Source: Acidobacteriota bacterium (GTDB lineage Bacteria; Acidobacteriota; Thermoanaerobaculia; Multivoradales; J023). Taken from it: 11,927 nucleotides of DNA. Made by a program: the position numbers and the translations under genes. This document shows positions 1,906 to 9,646 of this stretch, in pieces; positions within the stretch are counted from its first letter, which is position 1; every line of letters begins with the position of its first letter. The DNA lies in contig JBCCOR010000071.1 in NCBI GenBank assembly GCA_039025295.1, positions 1 to 11,927 on the forward strand. The letters are read 5' to 3'. The notes beneath the pieces are model-generated. The model made no database searches. It was not told the origin of the DNA and saw only the letters and a program-made list of their open reading frames with translations.

Positions 1906-4900
1906 CTACTCGCCCAGCGAACGCGTGTCGATCTTGCGCAGCGCCTCGACCAGATCGCTCAGCTGATCGATCTCGCGCAGCGCACGATCGAGCTGATCGC
2001 GCAGGCCGCGGTCGTCGACCGACGCCGTCTTGAGACGCCGGTCGATGCCGCGGACGAGCTCGATCATCTGGTCGCCGACCTGGCGCCCCAGGCGCTCGAG
2101 CAGCTGCAGCACCGACGGACTCAGCACCTGGACCACACGCGGGCCCTGGGCAGCCTTCGCCAGCGCGCCGAGGGTCGCGTCGAGGCGGTCGAGATAGGGC
2201 GCGATCGGCGCATCGCCGTCGGCGCGTGCGGCCGACGGCACCGGCGGCACCGGCGACGCGGGCGCGGGCGCGGGCGGCACCGGCGCGGGTGGATCCGGGA
2301 CCGCCGGCGGACGCGCGACGATGTCGGCCAGCTGATCGAACACCGGACGCAGCGAAACGCCCAGACCGCGCGCCAGCGCGCCGGCCAGGGCGTCTGCGTC
2401 GAACGATGCAGCGGCCACAGCAGCCGGCGCGTCCGCACGCTGGGCCGCGCTCGCCTGGAGCGCCTCGACCACCATCCGCAGCTGCGCGGCGTTCTGCGCC
2501 TGCGACGCCTGCAGCGCCTCTGCGCGCGCCGCGTCGGCGTCGGCGTCCGCGTCGCCGTCCGTCGACGCGATCTGCGCCTGGCGCGCCGTCTCGATCGCCT
2601 CGCCGATCTGGCCCAGGCGATCGCCGAGCAGGCCGACCTGACCGATCAGCCGCGCCGCCGGATCGTCGTCGTCGCCGCCCATCGCCTGCACGCGCGCGAA
2701 GCCGCGCTTGATCTCGCGCCAGCGCGCCGCCTGCGCGTCGGTCATCGTGCCGCGCAGTTCGGCCAGCTTGAGCAGGTTGGCCTCGGCGCCGGTCGTCAAC
2801 GTCTGCGCCTCGCCGCGGTAGTGGTCGTCGAGCAGGGCCGCGCGCTCGGCGTCGTTCATCGCCGGCACGAGCTTCTCGACCAGCTTGTTCATGTTGCGGT
2901 AGCTGCCCTGCAGCTGGAAGCGCGGCTCGGTGCGGAAGGCGTCGGCCTGGGCGGCCGACTCGATGTAGGTCTGGTTGACCTGCAGCAGCACCGTGCGACA
3001 CGCCAGGGCGTGGCGCAGCACCGCCACCATCTCGTCGATCGCGGCGCCGCCGAGCGCCTCGGCCAGCGGACCGACGTCGACTTCCTCGCCCGCCGCGCGC
3101 CGGATCAGCAGGCGCGCATCCTCGGGATCGCGCGCCGCCAAAGGCGCCAGCACCGCGTTCGAGGTCAGGCTGTTCTCGACGTAGCTGAGCGCGAAGAGAT
3201 GCTCGCGGCCGGCCAGCATGTCGCCGAGGTTGTAGGTGTCGGCGCGGTTGGCGAGCATGTCGGGAATCTGAAAAGCCTCGCCGGCCTCGGTGTAGGGATT
3301 GCCGGCCATGCACACCGCGAAGCGCTTGCCGCGCAGGTCGTAGGTGCGCGTGCGACCGCGCCACACGCCCTCGATGCGTCGCTGGGCGTCGCACAGGCTG
3401 ATGAATTTCTGCAGCAGCTCGGGATGGGTGTGCTGGATGTCGTCGAGATAGAGCAGCACGTTGTTGCCCATCTCGAGCGCCAGGCCGATCTTCTCGACCT
3501 CCTGGCGCGCGGTGGCGTTGGGCGCCTCGGCCGGATCGAGGGAGACGACACCGTGGCCCAGCGCCGGGCCGTTGACCTTGACGAAAACCAGGCCGAGGCG
3601 CTGGGCGACGTATTCCATCAGCGTCGTCTTGCCGTAGCCGGGCGGTGAGATCAGGAGCAGCAGGCCCATCTGGTCGGTGCGCCGATCGGCGCCGACCGCG
3701 CCCATCTGCTTGGCCAGGTTGTCGCCGATCAGCGGCAGATAGACCTCGTCGATCAGCCGGTTGCGGACGAACGCGCCCATCACCTTGGGCTCGAGCTCAC
3801 CGAGCCGCAGGCGCGCGGTCTCGGCCTCGAGCAGATCGTGGCGGCGGCGCTGAAAGGCGCGGAAGGCCGGCACGTCGCGGCGCTCGAAGCCGTCGAGGCG
3901 GGCGGTGAAGGTGTCGAGGCGCAGCGACAGCGCGCCCTGACGCACGCGCGCGTGCTGGCCCAGGAGGCCGGTGATGCGCGCGTCGACCCGCGCCGACACC
4001 GTCTCCCACGCGCCGCGTCCGTGTACCAGCAGCTGCGCGACCGCCTCGGCGCGCGCCGCCGCGCGCGGATCCTCGGCTTCGTCGTCGGCGTCGCCATCGT
4101 CGGACGCCGGGCGACTCGCGTCGAGATAGGCGCCGATCCAGGCGTCGGCGAGGGCGTAGCGCGCGCCGAGGACGTCGTCGAGGGCGCGCAGATCGTCGTC
4201 GAGATCGAGCCAGCCGCGCGCGGTGTGCTGCTGCAGATGGGCGCGCAGGCCGTCGAGCAGCTGCGCCGCCTCGCCGCCGACGGTCAGGCGGCCGCCCTGG
4301 GTCGAGTGGCTGGGATCGTGCGCCAGCTCGTCGACCAGCCACGCCGCCGCCAGCGGCGCGTGGTCATCGAGCGGCAGCTGGGCGTCGCGGGCGAAGCGGT
4401 CCATGATCGTCGTCAGCTCGTCGCGCAGGGCGATGCGGGCCGCGCCCGCGCCGAAGGTCTCGGCCAGCCGACCCAGGCTGCGCGCGCGCCGCTGCCACAG
4501 CGCGCGCGCGGTGTGATCGGGATAGAAGGTCCAAAACAGGCTGCCGAGCGCGCGCGCCTCGGCCGGCTGGGCCAGGCGCGCCGCGTTGGTGGCCAGGCCG
4601 TGCAGCGCCTCGAGAATGCGCGCCGCGTCGTGATCGTGGACGCCGCGCGCGTAGCCTTCGTCGTAGCGCGCCGACGCCGCGCGGCGCGCAAGCTCCTCGA
4701 TGTCCGCGCGCTCGAGGGTCGTCGCGCCGCCCTGCCGGCGGTGCGCGCCGAAGAGCTGCCAGGCGAGGAATTCGGCGCGGTAGACGGCGTCGTTCTCCGA
4801 CGGATAGACCATGTCCCACACCGGGCGCGCGACGTCGAGAAAGTCGTCGCCGTCGGCCAGGCTCGACGCCACCGGCGCGCGGTAGTCGGTGCCGGTGAGC

Positions 4901-7675: not shown

Positions 7676-9646
7676 TCAGCCCAGCTTGACGTCGTCGAGG
7701 CCGAGCTCCCGCGCCAGCTGCATCAGGCGCGCGGCCTTCTGGGCGGTCTCGGGATCGTCCGCGGCCGAGCCGGCCGTCAGCACGCGGCCGAGCGCCGCGG
7801 CGACGGTGAGATCGCGCAGGCCGGTGGCGTCGAGGCGGCTGTGGGTCAGGACGTCCTTGAGGTCCTGGCGCAGATCGGCGTCGCCGTCGGTGTAGCCGGC
7901 CAGCGCCTGCTGCGCCAGCTGGCTGCCGTCGACGAAGCGGTCGGTCGCGCGCGCGGCCGACAGCGCGCCCACCACGCGGTCGAAGAACACGCTCTCGCCG
8001 CCGACGATCTCGACCTTGGCCTCGCGCAGGCCCTCGGCGACCACGCCCGCCTGGGCCTCGGCGATCGTGCGCTGCGTGCGCTGCTGGGCGAGCTCGATCG
8101 CCTGCGCGGTCTCGAGCTTCAGGCGCACCTCCTCGTGGTTGCGCGACGCCGGGTCCATCGCCGCCAGCGCCTTGGCCTTCTCCATCAGGCTCTCGGCCGC
8201 GGCCAGGCCCTGCTGGCGCATGACCTCGGCCTGCGCGCGGCCGGCCTTCTCCTGCGCCGCCGCGTCGGCTTCCTTGACCCGCGCCTCGGCCAGGCCGAAC
8301 TTCTCGGTGGCGTCGGCGTCGCGCTCCTTGACCGACACCTTGGCCAAGCCCTCGGCCGCGGCCTGCGCCTGGGCGCCCTCGGCCAGGCGGATCTGCGCCT
8401 GCGCTTCGCGCTCGGCGGCCTCGCGCGCGGCGTCGGCGAGGGTCAGCTGCTCCTTGGCTTTGAACTTCGACGCCGCTTCGAGCGCCTCGGCGGCCTTGAT
8501 GTCCTTGACCAGCTGCTCCTGCGCCGCGCCCTCGGCGTCGATGATGCGCGCCTCCTTCTCGCGGTTGGCCAGCTCGACCTTGCGCAGGCGCTTGATCGCC
8601 TCCTCCTGCTCGGCGACGGTCTTGTCGACCGCGATGCGCTCGCGCACCACGTCGGCGATGGCGCGCTTCTCGTGCTCGAGCTCCTTGTCTTTGGAAATGC
8701 GCTGCAGCTCGACCTCGCGCTCGCGGCCGATCACCTCGAGCTGGCGCTCCTTCTCGACCCGCTCAGTCTCGACGGCGACGACGCGCTCGCGGTTCTTCTC
8801 GGCGACGGCGACCTGGCGCTTGAGGTTCTCTTCCTGCACCGCGATCTCCTCGTCGGTGCGGATGCGCGCGGTCTCCGAGCGCAGCCGCTCCTCGGCCTGC
8901 ACCTTCGCGGTCTCGGCCTCTTCGTGCGCCTGCACCGAGGTGACCTCGCGCAGCTGGCGCGCCTCGGCGTCGGACTTCTGGCGATCGAGCTCGAGAATCG
9001 CCTCGCGCGCCTCGACGTCCTTCGCCTTGATCTCCTTCTCCTCGTCGCGGCGGAACTCGTTGGTGCGCACGTTCTCGATCGCGGTCAGCTCGGTGATCTT
9101 GCGGATGCCCTGGGCGTCGAGGATGTTGTCCTTGTCGAGGTCGGTGAGCGGCGTCTGCTCGAGGTAGTCGATCGCGGCGTCCTCGAGCACGAAGCCGTTG
9201 AGATCGCGGCCGATGACGCCGATGATCTGGTCGCGGAACTCCTCGCGCTGGGTGTAGAGATCGACGAAATCGAGCTGCTTGCCGGCGGTCTTGAGCGCCT
9301 CGGAGAACTTGGCGGTGAAGAGATCCTTGAGCGTCTCGGGATCCGATGCGCGCGCGCAGCCGAGCGACTGCGCGACCTTGATCACGTCGTCGTGGGTCTT
9401 GTTGACGCGGACGAAGAAGTTGACCTTGATGTCGGCGCGGATGTTGTCGCGGCAGATCAGGCCGTCGGCGCCGCGGCGGTCGATCTCGATCGAGCGGACG
9501 GAGATGTCCATCAGCTCGGCCTTGTGGATGAACGGCATGACCACCGCGCCCGAGAAGCTGACGGTCACGCGGTCGCGCAGGATGTTGTTTAGAATCAGAG
9601 CTTTGCCCTGATCCACTTTGACGATACCGAGACGAAAACCTGCCAT
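7676..9646 (-). CDS. Flotillin-like SPFH/band-7 family protein (656 aa) with a long Glu/Ala/Arg/Lys-rich coiled-coil (flotillin) region. No N-terminal transmembrane segment is evident.
   Basis: ATG at 9644-9646 (complement) is preceded by GGAGGAG (revcomp of 9653-9659) about 7 nt upstream. The N-terminus AGFRLGIVKVDQGKALILNNILRDRVTVSFSGAVVMPFIHKAELMDISVRSIEID...NIRADIKVNFFVRVN matches the SPFH fold start (vv.p.eaaiV..fG...r.l.pG..f..Pfi..v..vd.r...l......Tkdn..v.vd). It is followed by approx. 300 aa of heptad-like E/A/R/K/Q-rich sequence (EAREAILELDRQKSDAEARQLREV..., AAEREAQAQIRLAEGAQAQAAAEGLAKVS) as in FloT/YqiK/flotillin-1. The stop TGA is at 7676-7678 (complement). The ORF-track start at 9769 adds 41 non-hydrophobic residues over the intergenic region, and I regard that extension as spurious. 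Confidence 0.85.
   Translation of the reverse strand: MAGFRLGIVKVDQGKALILNNILRDRVTVSFSGAVVMPFIHKAELMDISVRSIEIDRRGADGLICRDNIRADIKVNFFVRVNKTHDDVIKVAQSLGCARASDPETLKDLFTAKFSEALKTAGKQLDFVDLYTQREEFRDQIIGVIGRDLNGFVLEDAAIDYLEQTPLTDLDKDNILDAQGIRKITELTAIENVRTNEFRRDEEKEIKAKDVEAREAILELDRQKSDAEARQLREVTSVQAHEEAETAKVQAEERLRSETARIRTDEEIAVQEENLKRQVAVAEKNRERVVAVETERVEKERQLEVIGREREVELQRISKDKELEHEKRAIADVVRERIAVDKTVAEQEEAIKRLRKVELANREKEARIIDAEGAAQEQLVKDIKAAEALEAASKFKAKEQLTLADAAREAAEREAQAQIRLAEGAQAQAAAEGLAKVSVKERDADATEKFGLAEARVKEADAAAQEKAGRAQAEVMRQQGLAAAESLMEKAKALAAMDPASRNHEEVRLKLETAQAIELAQQRTQRTIAEAQAGVVAEGLREAKVEIVGGESVFFDRVVGALSAARATDRFVDGSQLAQQALAGYTDGDADLRQDLKDVLTHSRLDATGLRDLTVAAALGRVLTAGSAADDPETAQKAARLMQLARELGLDDVKLG

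Follow-up and report, generated by a model that had tools for sequence, protein, structure and literature searches.

An Acidobacteriota locus carries a two-gene version of a widespread bacterial SPFH protein and giant ATPase module

Introduction

In the SPFH2 "p-flotillin" operons YqiJ-YqiK of E. coli and YuaF-FloT/YuaG of B. subtilis, an NfeD2 protein is encoded alongside the SPFH protein (Hinderhofer et al. 2009, PMC2636767). The SPFH cages QmcA-YbbJ and HflK/C, along with FloA-NfeD complexes, offer further precedents (PMC13086221). HflK/C, an SPFH cage around an AAA+ machine, faces the periplasm (PMC2636767). The enclosed ATPase, FtsH, is a membrane-anchored protease of the classic AAA clade. 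In the PspA-SamGHI (YdjGHI) system of B. subtilis, membrane proteins are reported to recruit a cytosolic SPFH protein lacking a transmembrane (TM) segment, within a PspA operon (10.64898/2026.02.06.704340). A 2024 comparative genomics study of membrane-stress operons (PMC11237479) described an operon of CesT/Tir-PspA, YqiJ/YuaF, a band-7/flotillin protein, and a protein combining a beta-propeller, a coiled coil, and an AAA+ ATPase, as well as "abbreviated" versions without PspA, and interpreted it in terms of membrane stress. That study gives the module one paragraph with no experiments and does not separate a subclade with TM-less SPFH proteins; no experiments on any member of the module were found in the literature searched.

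Here we analyze a gene pair from the latter family of operons, found in a stretch of 11,927 nucleotides (the window) from an Acidobacteriota metagenome-assembled genome (MAG). An earlier note on this DNA put the pair forward as a candidate uncharacterized two-gene system, but PMC11237479 had already described such an operon. The window shares with that operon the giant protein of propeller, coiled coil, and AAA+ module and the SPFH partner directly upstream, but it lacks PspA, CesT/Tir, an adjoining YqiJ-like gene, and a TM segment in the SPFH protein. As in YqiK and FloT, the window's SPFH protein has an SPFH domain followed by a long coiled-coil region, and its homologues are named "YqiK" or "flotillin family protein" by JGI and NCBI. 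Relatives of the pair also share with the YqiJ-YqiK and YuaF-FloT operons an NfeD-like small membrane protein encoded upstream, but those operons have no giant ATPase, and the likeness to FloT is weak (18 bits against a cut-off of 700 for a close relative). Like the window's pair, HflK/C-FtsH joins an SPFH oligomer to an AAA+ ATPase, and it is the best precedent for an ATP-driven enzyme under the control of an SPFH scaffold; the giant differs from FtsH in being MoxR-like and in having neither a protease domain nor a TM segment, and any physical analogy between the two is inferred. For the ATPase module itself, MoxR-class AAA+ ATPases (NorQ, CbbQ, and RavA; Pfam AAA_5) are among the closest known systems. 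PspA-SamGHI, as reported, parallels the TM-less SPFH protein and YqiJ-like partner of the window's subclade, but has other partner proteins and no giant ATPase.

Results and Discussion

Organization of the gene pair

The ORF coordinates in the earlier note, the 13-nt gap, and the lack of a ribosome-binding site between the genes were all reproduced from the sequence (Table 1), and both reading frames are uninterrupted over 656 and 1918 codons. At its maximum extent the SPFH ORF spans 7676-9769 from a GTG start; the ATG at 9646, which yields the 656-aa product, is preceded nine nt upstream by a consensus Shine-Dalgarno sequence (AGGAGG), and an identical protein is recorded at NCBI as a "flotillin family protein" from an Acidobacteriota MAG. 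No Shine-Dalgarno-like purine run was seen within the 13-nt spacer, and no promoter-like or terminator-like sites were found between the two genes on the minus strand. The SPFH ribosome-binding site lies in the intergenic region upstream, as presumably does the pair's promoter; G+C content is 0.61 for positions 9501-10000, against about 0.72 elsewhere in the window.

Table 1. Features of the gene pair and its upstream region, in window coordinates.
Feature	Position	Strand	Details
Intergenic region	9647..9884	.	238 bp, lower G+C; from SPFH start to divergent RHS gene
SPFH/Band-7 protein gene	7676..9646	minus	656 aa; ORF call and start evidence
SPFH (Band_7) domain	9188..9619	minus	aa 10-153; Pfam Band_7 E 9e-9
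Spacer GCGGGCGCCGATC	7663..7675	minus	13 nt, from SPFH TGA (7678-7676) to giant ATG (7662-7660)
Giant ATPase gene, DUF3686/DUF7902/AAA+ family	1906..7662	minus	1918 aa, ATG start; ORF and Pfam
DUF3686 region	6157..7533	minus	aa 44-502; Pfam E 8e-195
Long helical bundles	5029..6288	minus	aa 459-878; AlphaFold2; single helices of 45-58 residues
DUF7902	5542..5793	minus	aa 624-707, inside helical bundles; Pfam E 1.6e-26
Small beta domain (aa 889-930), then helical domains (941 to ~1320)	3703..4998	minus	AlphaFold2
AAA+ module with lid	2863..3669	minus	aa 1332 to ~1600
C-terminal tail	1909..2862	minus	aa 1601-1918; helices, Ala/Pro-rich low-confidence linker, conserved terminal helical segment

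Conservation of the pairing and the third gene

We fetched 80 loci with orthologues of the giant (37 from Actinomycetota, 17 from Myxococcota, and 21 from Gamma- and Betaproteobacteria, plus Acidobacteriota and Planctomycetota) and examined 90 in total. In 76 of the 78 informative loci, spanning at least five phyla, the gene immediately upstream of the giant, on the same strand, encodes an SPFH protein, and Deinococcus, Hymenobacter, Streptomyces, and Pseudomonas (pQBR103) replicons carry the two genes in this order as well. The adjacency is thus beyond chance and conserved across phyla. The gene-neighborhood analysis that the earlier note had proposed thereby bears out a conserved SPFH partner, giants being almost never found without one, and agrees with its reading of the pair as a co-oriented and probably co-transcribed unit. 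Coupled translation, which it had also suggested, is plausible here and in the many Actinomycetota in which the two genes share a 4-nt GTGA stop/start overlap, but is not a family-wide property, because spacers at orthologous loci reach about 200 nt.

A third gene normally completes the module. In about 70 of 75 loci (69 by clustering and one, L066, by tblastn), the SPFH gene is preceded by a YqiJ/YuaF (NfeD-like) membrane protein gene, as well as in all five examined relatives that share the window's TM-less SPFH type. Its product is a protein of three TM segments and a beta-rich part whose NfeD/YqiJ identity is weak in sequence, with YqiJ_N matching 2/40 members and NfeD 1/40, and its profile found no match in the PDB. 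The full module thus normally comprises this gene, the flotillin-like SPFH gene, and a giant ATPase of about 1,600-2,000 aa, and the idea that the giant replaces the NfeD/YqiJ partner has to be dropped, since the two occur together. The window is the exception, a two-gene version of this widespread bacterial module: no YqiJ/NfeD-like gene adjoins its pair, and no coding remnant was present in any frame of the upstream intergenic region.

This absence raises the question of whether the window's copy is an orphaned or decaying remnant, its YqiJ-like anchor lost by rearrangement beside the RHS gene and the function of the module gone with it. The near-universal presence of the anchor gene elsewhere, the lower G+C of the upstream region next to a divergent RHS gene, and the fact that the locus is known only from an 11.9-kb MAG contig are all consistent with such a loss. 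Nevertheless, we consider it unlikely, as both frames are intact, every invariant AAA+ motif is kept, a consensus Shine-Dalgarno sequence precedes the SPFH start, and 17 genomes are known to have SPFH2 genes with no NfeD gene beside them (PMC2636767). The YqiJ-like gene may instead be located at another site in the genome, or the pair may dispense with it.

The SPFH protein

The SPFH/flotillin-like assignment in the earlier note was right, but the evidence is hard to see: the full-length protein retrieved no Pfam match even at E <= 10, and it took a search restricted to the N-terminal 249 aa to reveal Band_7 (36.1 bits; cut-off 23.6). The Pfam Flot domain was not detected, and the C-terminal region is long, helical, and rich in Glu, Ala, and Lys. 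An N-terminal TM helix is absent from this protein and from 62 of its 119 closest homologues, whereas it is present in all 75 of the more distant SPFH orthologues checked. The protein is 61-66% identical to TM-less homologues encoded between a YqiJ-like gene and a giant, and is a flotillin-like, YqiK-type member of the TM-less subclade. Membrane association is putative for the window's pair, because both anchors, the TM helix and an adjoining YqiJ-like gene, are absent.

The giant ATPase

The giant has more than 6,500 homologues, of which the 120 listed show full-length identities of 48-56%, and its N-terminal domain forms 743 clusters at 50% identity; proteins in loci with all three genes are 55% identical to it over 99% of its length. 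Profile searches of both proteins, another check proposed in the earlier note, returned for the giant strong matches only to domains of unknown function and none to a well-characterized family. In the AlphaFold2 model covering the propeller and helical bundles (mean pLDDT 81.6), the DUF3686 region takes in the end of an N-terminal helix (18-59), a beta-propeller (65-435), and the first helices after it. Foldseek searches with the propeller retrieved nothing but generic propellers, among them Elp1, sialidases, LRRK2 WD40, and DDB1, and the small beta and helical domains (aa 889 to about 1320) have no family assignment. Within the C-terminal tail, pLDDT falls below 50 at aa 1785-1820 and 1833-1847; the extreme C-terminus is conserved in the consensus, with many orthologues aligning only to about aa 1690.

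The AAA+ module is MoxR-like, although Pfam AAA and AAA_5 at aa 1335-1458 (26.7 and 25.1 bits) both barely exceed their curated cut-offs. It has a Walker A motif, GYGKTT (1342-1347, including K1345), a Walker B motif, LYLDD (D1407, D1408), a pre-sensor-1 beta-hairpin seen in the AlphaFold2 models, sensor-1 N1455, R1473 in PDMLANRAD, and GSYRN (R1589). The Walker A, sensor-1, Arg, and sensor-2-like motifs show no variation; the window's copy keeps them all, and all of its nucleotide-binding motifs are intact. The family's Walker B reads DD rather than DE, which may make ATP turnover slow or switch-like.

Going by its names in Pfam (DUF3686, "ATPase involved in DNA repair") and at NCBI, the giant would be a DNA repair ATPase, a name that finds no support in our analysis and a role that we regard as highly improbable. 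RuvB does give the best Foldseek E-values, but the matches to the RuvB models span only the Walker A region and, at 22.9 and 20.3 bits, fall far below the cut-offs of 282 and 299, and Pfam revealed no DNA-binding, nuclease, or helicase domain in the giant. Knock-out of a YqiK-type SPFH gene in Shewanella raised spontaneous mutation (PMC1468410); its authors ascribed the rise to iron leakage and oxidative damage, and no giant is reported for that locus. The conserved partners of the giant are membrane proteins, and the literature searched links no family member to DNA repair.

Genomic neighborhood and proposed role

The earlier note placed the pair between mobile-element debris and a polymorphic-toxin gene and suggested a conflict or anti-phage (abortive infection) system in which an SPFH scaffold gates an ATP-driven effector. 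On the plus strand, an RHS-repeat ORF (RHS_repeat E 1.6e-26) does run from a GTG at 9885 past the window end, so the pair abuts an RHS gene, but no toxin domain lies inside the window; at the position of the supposed debris (about 1200-1800), nothing was found by Pfam, NCBIfam, or tblastn against plasmids. Among 77 downstream flanks, a few PADLOC matches were seen (DrmC-like PLD 4, AriA 2, PtuA 2, AbiLi 2, GajA 1), and the module is carried by some plasmids and megaplasmids. In one locus (L061), an alpha/beta-hydrolase-like ORF and two others, one resembling an NYN-domain protein and the other a DUF86/HepT-type protein, are inserted between the SPFH gene and the giant. Despite these associations, a conflict system seems quite improbable, and the defence-island idea gains little from so few defence-ATPase-like flanks. 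The giant itself matched PADLOC models only below threshold, at its Walker A region (E 0.003-0.009), and the SPFH protein matched none; the pair had no matches in 50,697 phage records; and Pfam turned up no nuclease, protease, pore-forming, or NADase effector domain. Conservation of both proteins is also unusually high for conflict genes, with about 45-55% identity over 1,700 aa between Acidobacteriota, Actinomycetota, and Gammaproteobacteria, and the commonest neighbors are membrane-stress or housekeeping genes.

The flanking genes point to membrane stress and not to defence islands. PspA_IM30 is the commonest upstream neighbor (8/75), though adjoining in only about 10% of loci, and Rhomboid (5/77), PLDc_2 (4/77), and TelA (2/77) recur downstream. 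On balance we favor, with some reserve, a module in which an SPFH scaffold and an ATP-driven giant serve in a membrane-stress response, its role being most likely the ATP-driven remodeling of an SPFH scaffold beneath the membrane. The SPFH protein, like others of its kind, would assemble into a ring or cage on the cytoplasmic side of the inner membrane, where its own TM helix would hold it; in the TM-less subclade of the window, the YqiJ-like partner would provide the anchor. The giant would oligomerize through its AAA+ module, dock on the scaffold by its propeller and helical arms, and spend ATP on building up, taking apart, or remodeling the scaffold or the proteins it holds; a physical interaction of the two proteins is one that we infer only from gene order. 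Such remodeling would form part of the membrane-stress response, often alongside PspA. Around orthologues of both window proteins, a Hymenobacter plasmid carries the full operon in the order Tir-PspA-DUF1449-SPFH-giant, and on pQBR103 a PspA/yjf-like cluster lies upstream of the module.

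The SPFH-ATPase gene pair and its conservation

ORF calling on the window, which has a G+C content of 72%, reproduced the coordinates that the earlier note had assigned to two minus-strand genes, one encoding a flotillin-like Band-7 protein (the SPFH protein) and the other a very large AAA+ ATPase (the giant), which carry the NCBI product names "flotillin family protein" and "DNA repair ATPase", respectively. The likely start of the SPFH gene is the ATG at 9646, which has AGGAGG 9 nt upstream and would yield a protein of 656 aa. The note's claim that the 13-nt spacer between the SPFH stop codon and the ATG of the giant lacks a ribosome binding site also held, as no Shine-Dalgarno-like motif was seen when the spacer (GCGGGCGCCGATC) was read. 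Promoter and terminator scans gave no informative signal, with no candidate site between the two genes on this strand. The observation made in the note is confirmed, and its interpretation is partly supported.

Features of the window and of the giant. Positions are window nucleotides or, where marked aa, residues of the giant.
Feature	Position	Strand	Basis or remark
ApbE-family (FAD:protein FMN transferase-like) ORF	110-1183	+	Signal peptide; Pfam E 6e-21
ORFs of 126-167 aa	~1200-1800	both	Between ApbE ORF and 3' end of giant gene
Giant gene	1906-7662	-	ORF; 1918 aa
SPFH ORF, from GTG	7676-9769	-	Extended form
RHS/YD-repeat ORF, from GTG, partial	9885-11927	+	RHS_repeat E 1.6e-26
N-terminal helix	aa 18-59		AlphaFold2
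DUF3686	aa 44-502		Pfam E 8e-195
Beta-propeller	aa 65-435		AlphaFold2
Bundles of very long helices	aa 459-878		AlphaFold2
DUF7902	aa 624-707		Pfam E 1.6e-26
Small beta domain	aa 889-930		AlphaFold2
Helical domain	aa 941-1146		AlphaFold2
AAA and AAA_5	aa 1335-1458		Pfam E 8.6e-6; both barely over cut-offs
Walker B D1407-D1408	3439-3444		

A genome scan with one genome per species produced 595 stretches with a match, of which the 80 best loci were examined. Tallied from record titles, these belong to Actinomycetota (37), Gamma/Betaproteobacteria (21), Myxococcota and other "delta" groups (17), Acidobacteriota (3), Planctomycetota (1), and a record labelled Clostridia (1). The window SPFH protein used as a tblastn query found a match in 77 of these 80 loci. 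Two of the three loci without a match, L015 and L032, are contigs that start at the giant and were left out, leaving 78 informative loci; in 76 of them, the SPFH gene lies directly upstream of the giant on the same strand. The pairing exceeds chance and is represented in at least five phyla, so the conservation of the SPFH partner, which the note had put forward for checking, was found. Annotated Pseudomonas (pQBR103), Hymenobacter, Deinococcus, and Streptomyces replicons show this gene order too. Among the 78, L050 (Myxococcales bacterium 68-20) is the one complete locus whose giant has no SPFH gene upstream; there, the ORF upstream of 5971 encodes a 765 aa product resembling a secreted protein with Cys-rich repeats. 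Only at L061 (Lampropedia hyalina) is the pair split, by three ORFs at 2551-5992 whose translations, in our reading, resemble an alpha/beta-hydrolase, an NYN-domain protein (512 aa), and a DUF86/HepT-like protein (160 aa). The spacer between the two genes ranges from a 4-nt GTGA overlap in many actinobacteria to about 200 nt elsewhere. Therefore, of the co-transcription and coupled translation proposed for the pair, the former appears general across loci and the latter can be at most a local trait.

A third gene and a previously described operon

All-against-all clustering of the ORFs from the related loci revealed a conserved third family, whose gene just precedes the SPFH gene in the same orientation in 69 loci, with one more (L066) added by tblastn. 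Its members, of about 200-280 aa, combine TM helices at the N-terminus with a beta-rich motif at the C-terminus (G-x-x-C-x-V-R-T ... F-G-Q-A ... D-G-G-A ... V-R ... R-G). Profile tests were weak (YqiJ_N in 2 of 40 members, NfeD in 1 of 40), and the family profile retrieved no PDB match. The assignment to the NfeD/YqiJ type is thus not firmly tied by profiles and rests on the architecture, on the RefSeq label of one member ("DUF1449 family protein"), and on PMC11237479, where the family is identified as YqiJ/YuaF; YqiJ and YuaF are themselves divergent NfeD homologues (Hinderhofer et al., PMC2636767). The presence of this YqiJ-like gene alongside the giant contradicts the idea that the giant stands in for the usual NfeD/YqiJ partner.

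The earlier note regarded the pair as a candidate for an uncharacterised two-gene system. An operon consisting of CesT/Tir-PspA and three more genes, among them a YqiJ/YuaF protein with three TM segments, has already been described (PMC11237479; mSystems 2024, bioRxiv 2020), and thus the module formed by the YqiJ-like, SPFH, and giant genes is known from comparative genomics. According to that work, a PLD gene is additionally present at some loci, abbreviated operons that have no PspA occur widely, and the CesT/Tir-PspA dyad belongs to the full form and is optional in the abbreviated one; its supplement lists a Dokdonia example as "Betapropeller+Coiled-coil+AAA-ATPase". The window shares with this operon the band-7/coiled-coil gene directly upstream of the giant, but it lacks the YqiJ/YuaF gene, the TM segment on the band-7 protein, and the CesT/Tir-PspA dyad, which was looked for in the window and not found. 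Seven YqiJ-like tblastn queries likewise found no YqiJ-like gene in the window, and an RHS gene lies on the upstream side of SPFH where relatives have the YqiJ-like gene. The window thus holds the module in an incomplete form of two genes, although its two proteins are orthologues of module members, and the pair very probably belongs to the module. No new kind of system is revealed; the window adds one member, slightly atypical, to a module that was already known but is uncharacterised. That the locus is a decaying orphan, a reading compatible with membership of the module, we consider unlikely.

Near the YqiJ-like gene, three related loci encode a protein of 761-830 aa directly upstream on the same strand (L083 2545-4830, L087 1596-4088, and L090 1825-4122; 51-65% mutual identity), with an N-terminal GGTGAVGG Rossmann-like motif and no Pfam match. 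It occurs in three of six close Acidobacteriota-type loci and is missing from the window and the other 80 or so loci; perhaps the module has in this protein a fourth component specific to the clade.

The SPFH protein belongs to a subclade without a membrane helix

Searched alone, aa 1-249 of the SPFH protein match Band_7 (36.1 bits against a gathering score of 23.6, E 9e-9). The biased coiled-coil region is the probable reason why an hmmscan of the whole 656 aa protein misses this match even at E <= 10. Most SPFH homologues are also without a precomputed Pfam match, and under-calling of this clade by automated pipelines is to be expected. No Pfam match to the Flot domain was obtained, a close relative scored 18 bits against a FloT model with a cut-off of 700, and no sequence match to solved structures was retrieved from PDB sequences. 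Architecture and the NCBI/JGI names of the homologues ("flotillin family protein", "YqiK") are consistent with a flotillin.

All 75 SPFH orthologues in the genome scan, as well as the two plasmid loci examined that have a complete 5' end, carry an N-terminal TM helix before a K-V-x-Q-G-x-A-L-I motif. No such segment was found by hydropathy in the window protein, whose best 17-residue window scores 0.76 in the extended ORF and 1.24 in the 656 aa form, against 2.3-3.9 in the 75 TM-bearing orthologues. Because of this 75 of 75 count, a one-off 5' truncation of the window gene was first inferred. It is ruled out by the nearest relatives: 62 of the 119 closest homologues (57-66% identical) share the TM-less form and the N-terminus 'M..GIVKVEQGKALI' of the window protein, a few of which may reflect miscalled start codons, and in five related loci (L084 and L087-L090) the frame upstream of SPFH is interrupted by stops or lacks a hydrophobic stretch. 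At all five, 20-132 nt separate the end of a YqiJ-like gene from the SPFH start, and SPFH is followed by the giant. The relatives and the five loci therefore place the window protein in a genuine TM-less subclade, for which the YqiJ-like protein is the obvious candidate for membrane anchor. Within this subclade, the sole oddity of the window is that no anchor gene is adjacent.

Anatomy of the giant

The giant has the full layout of its family, with DUF3686 at the N-terminus, DUF7902 in the center, an AAA+ domain in the C-terminal half, and a length within ~1,600-2,000 aa. More than 6,500 homologues exist, and the 120 listed are 48-56% identical to it over 85-100% of its length; the DUF3686-bearing N-terminal domain forms 743 clusters at 50% identity, the complete members of which are 1,600-2,000 aa long. 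AlphaFold2 models were generated for aa 1-1150 (60-sequence alignment, mean pLDDT 81.6) and aa 1101-1918 (mean pLDDT 75.4). The latter predicts, in order, an AAA+ core with a beta-hairpin preceding sensor 1, a helical lid, more helices, a low-confidence Ala/Pro-rich linker, and a terminal helical segment. Foldseek searches of the N-terminal 1150 aa against the PDB retrieved generic beta-propellers only. A coat-like protein was rejected, since TM-scores were only 0.07-0.09 for the extended alignments with clathrin and IFT-A.

Invariant in 14 diverse homologues are Walker A (GYGKTT), Walker B (LYLDD), the sensor-1 Asn (GNPYTE), Arg1473 (PDMLANRAD), and GSYRN. The Walker B sequence LYLDD-IQH has Asp-Asp where Asp-Glu is the usual form, which may make ATP hydrolysis slow or regulated. 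The AAA_5 match, together with a nearest structural similarity to MoxR proteins, places the giant in the MoxR class, as the note had recognized. Searches of both proteins and of the family profiles against PDB sequences gave matches at the level of Walker A or none.

HflK/C-FtsH has an AAA partner with a peptidase and a TM anchor, whereas the giant has no peptidase family in Pfam and no evident long hydrophobic stretch. MoxR-class ATPases have a VWA partner nearby, whereas none was found among the window genes or the 25 commonest Pfam families listed for the neighbors of 75-77 loci. The name "DNA repair ATPase" would make the giant a repair enzyme. The giant matches RuvB models at 22.9 and 20.3 bits, less than a tenth of the cut-offs (282 and 299), over aa 1324-1369 only, and neither Pfam nor a reading of the sequence revealed a nuclease, helicase, protease, VWA, or TM element in it. 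With no such elements and such low scores, the name is without support here, and a role in DNA repair is very improbable.

Genomic context and proposed role

Flanking genes of the related loci (75 upstream and 77 downstream neighbors of the module) were scanned with Pfam and PADLOC. The commonest upstream family is PspA_IM30 (8/75); downstream are Rhomboid (5/77), PLDc_2 (4/77), AAA_16 and AAA_22 (3/77 each), and TelA (2/77), and every remaining flank family occurs in at most four loci. The PLDc_2 genes fit the PLD gene that PMC11237479 reports. The module is also found on 13 plasmid-collection records, several of which are actually chromosomes or megaplasmids; in pQBR103 it follows a PspA / rhomboid / DUF2491 / DUF350 / DUF1190 / glutathionylspermidine-synthase cluster, and in Hymenobacter it follows Tir-PspA. 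PADLOC matches in the flanks were few, including DrmC (4, PLD genes), MkoC (4), MkoB (3), AriA (2), PtuA (2), and AbiLi (2). Against PADLOC-DB 2.0, the giant matched only IetA and mad8, not significantly (E 0.003-0.009, Walker A region), and the SPFH protein had no match; no phage match was obtained for the module proteins. The context is one of membrane stress and not a defence island, contrary to the neighborhood assumed in the note, and a conflict system formed by the SPFH protein and the giant is accordingly improbable.

SPFH proteins assemble into rings or cages lying against the membrane, which NfeD partners join (PMC13086221), and 10.64898/2026.02.06.704340 describes, in a PspA operon, a cytosolic SPFH protein that can be recruited by membrane partners. 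By analogy with other SPFH systems, the SPFH protein of the module would form a sub-membrane scaffold, with either its own helix or the YqiJ-like protein as the anchor. The giant would oligomerize through its AAA+ ring, contact the scaffold through the propeller and long helical arms, and remodel the scaffold or its clients at the expense of ATP in envelope stress. We offer this mechanism as a whole tentatively, as possible rather than probable. More speculative, and in our estimate rather unlikely, is that SPFH ring and giant constitute a dedicated ATP-driven sub-membrane machine, a cage with its own remodelling motor, whose function would be comparable to that of HflK/C-FtsH or ESCRT-III-Vps4; the cage of TM-less members, above all at the YqiJ-less window locus, could be soluble or only peripherally attached. 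If true, the giant would be the first dedicated enzymatic partner for bacterial flotillins, which the papers drawn on here portray mainly as passive scaffolds.

Prior coverage of the module amounts to one paragraph in a comparative-genomics paper and a misleading database name. No experimental work on it, including on DUF3686/PF12458, was found in the literature searched, and Hinderhofer et al. 2009 (PMC2636767) do not mention the giant. To this we add figures for the linkage, an outline of how the giant is built, the division of SPFH proteins into TM-anchored and TM-less forms, and evidence for a context of membrane stress rather than phage defence. The linkage in 76 of 78 loci and the conservation of the giant (~50% identity over 1,700 residues) together provide a strong lead, hardly exploited so far, towards an ATP-driven motor as the working partner of at least one class of flotillin. 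It is a good entry to flotillin function, but it is not new and not specific to the window.

Other genes around the pair

The ApbE-family ORF seems to have no relation to the module. The small ORFs between it and the giant, described in the note as mobile-element debris, had no family match in Pfam, NCBIfam, or plasmid tblastn, so that label was not substantiated; their plus-strand translation closes with a tandem EGRQLGV-QEGRQLGV repeat, and our impression is of a candidate Rpn-type transposase fragment. The RHS ORF is divergent from SPFH, with 238 bp between them, and encodes a presumably secreted protein with a signal-peptide-like N-terminus; it leaves the window, and any C-terminal toxin domain is therefore out of view. 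On the downstream side of the module, the giant is immediately followed in several Gammaproteobacteria (e.g., loci L051, L052, L063, and L080) by a same-strand ORF of about 190-230 aa.
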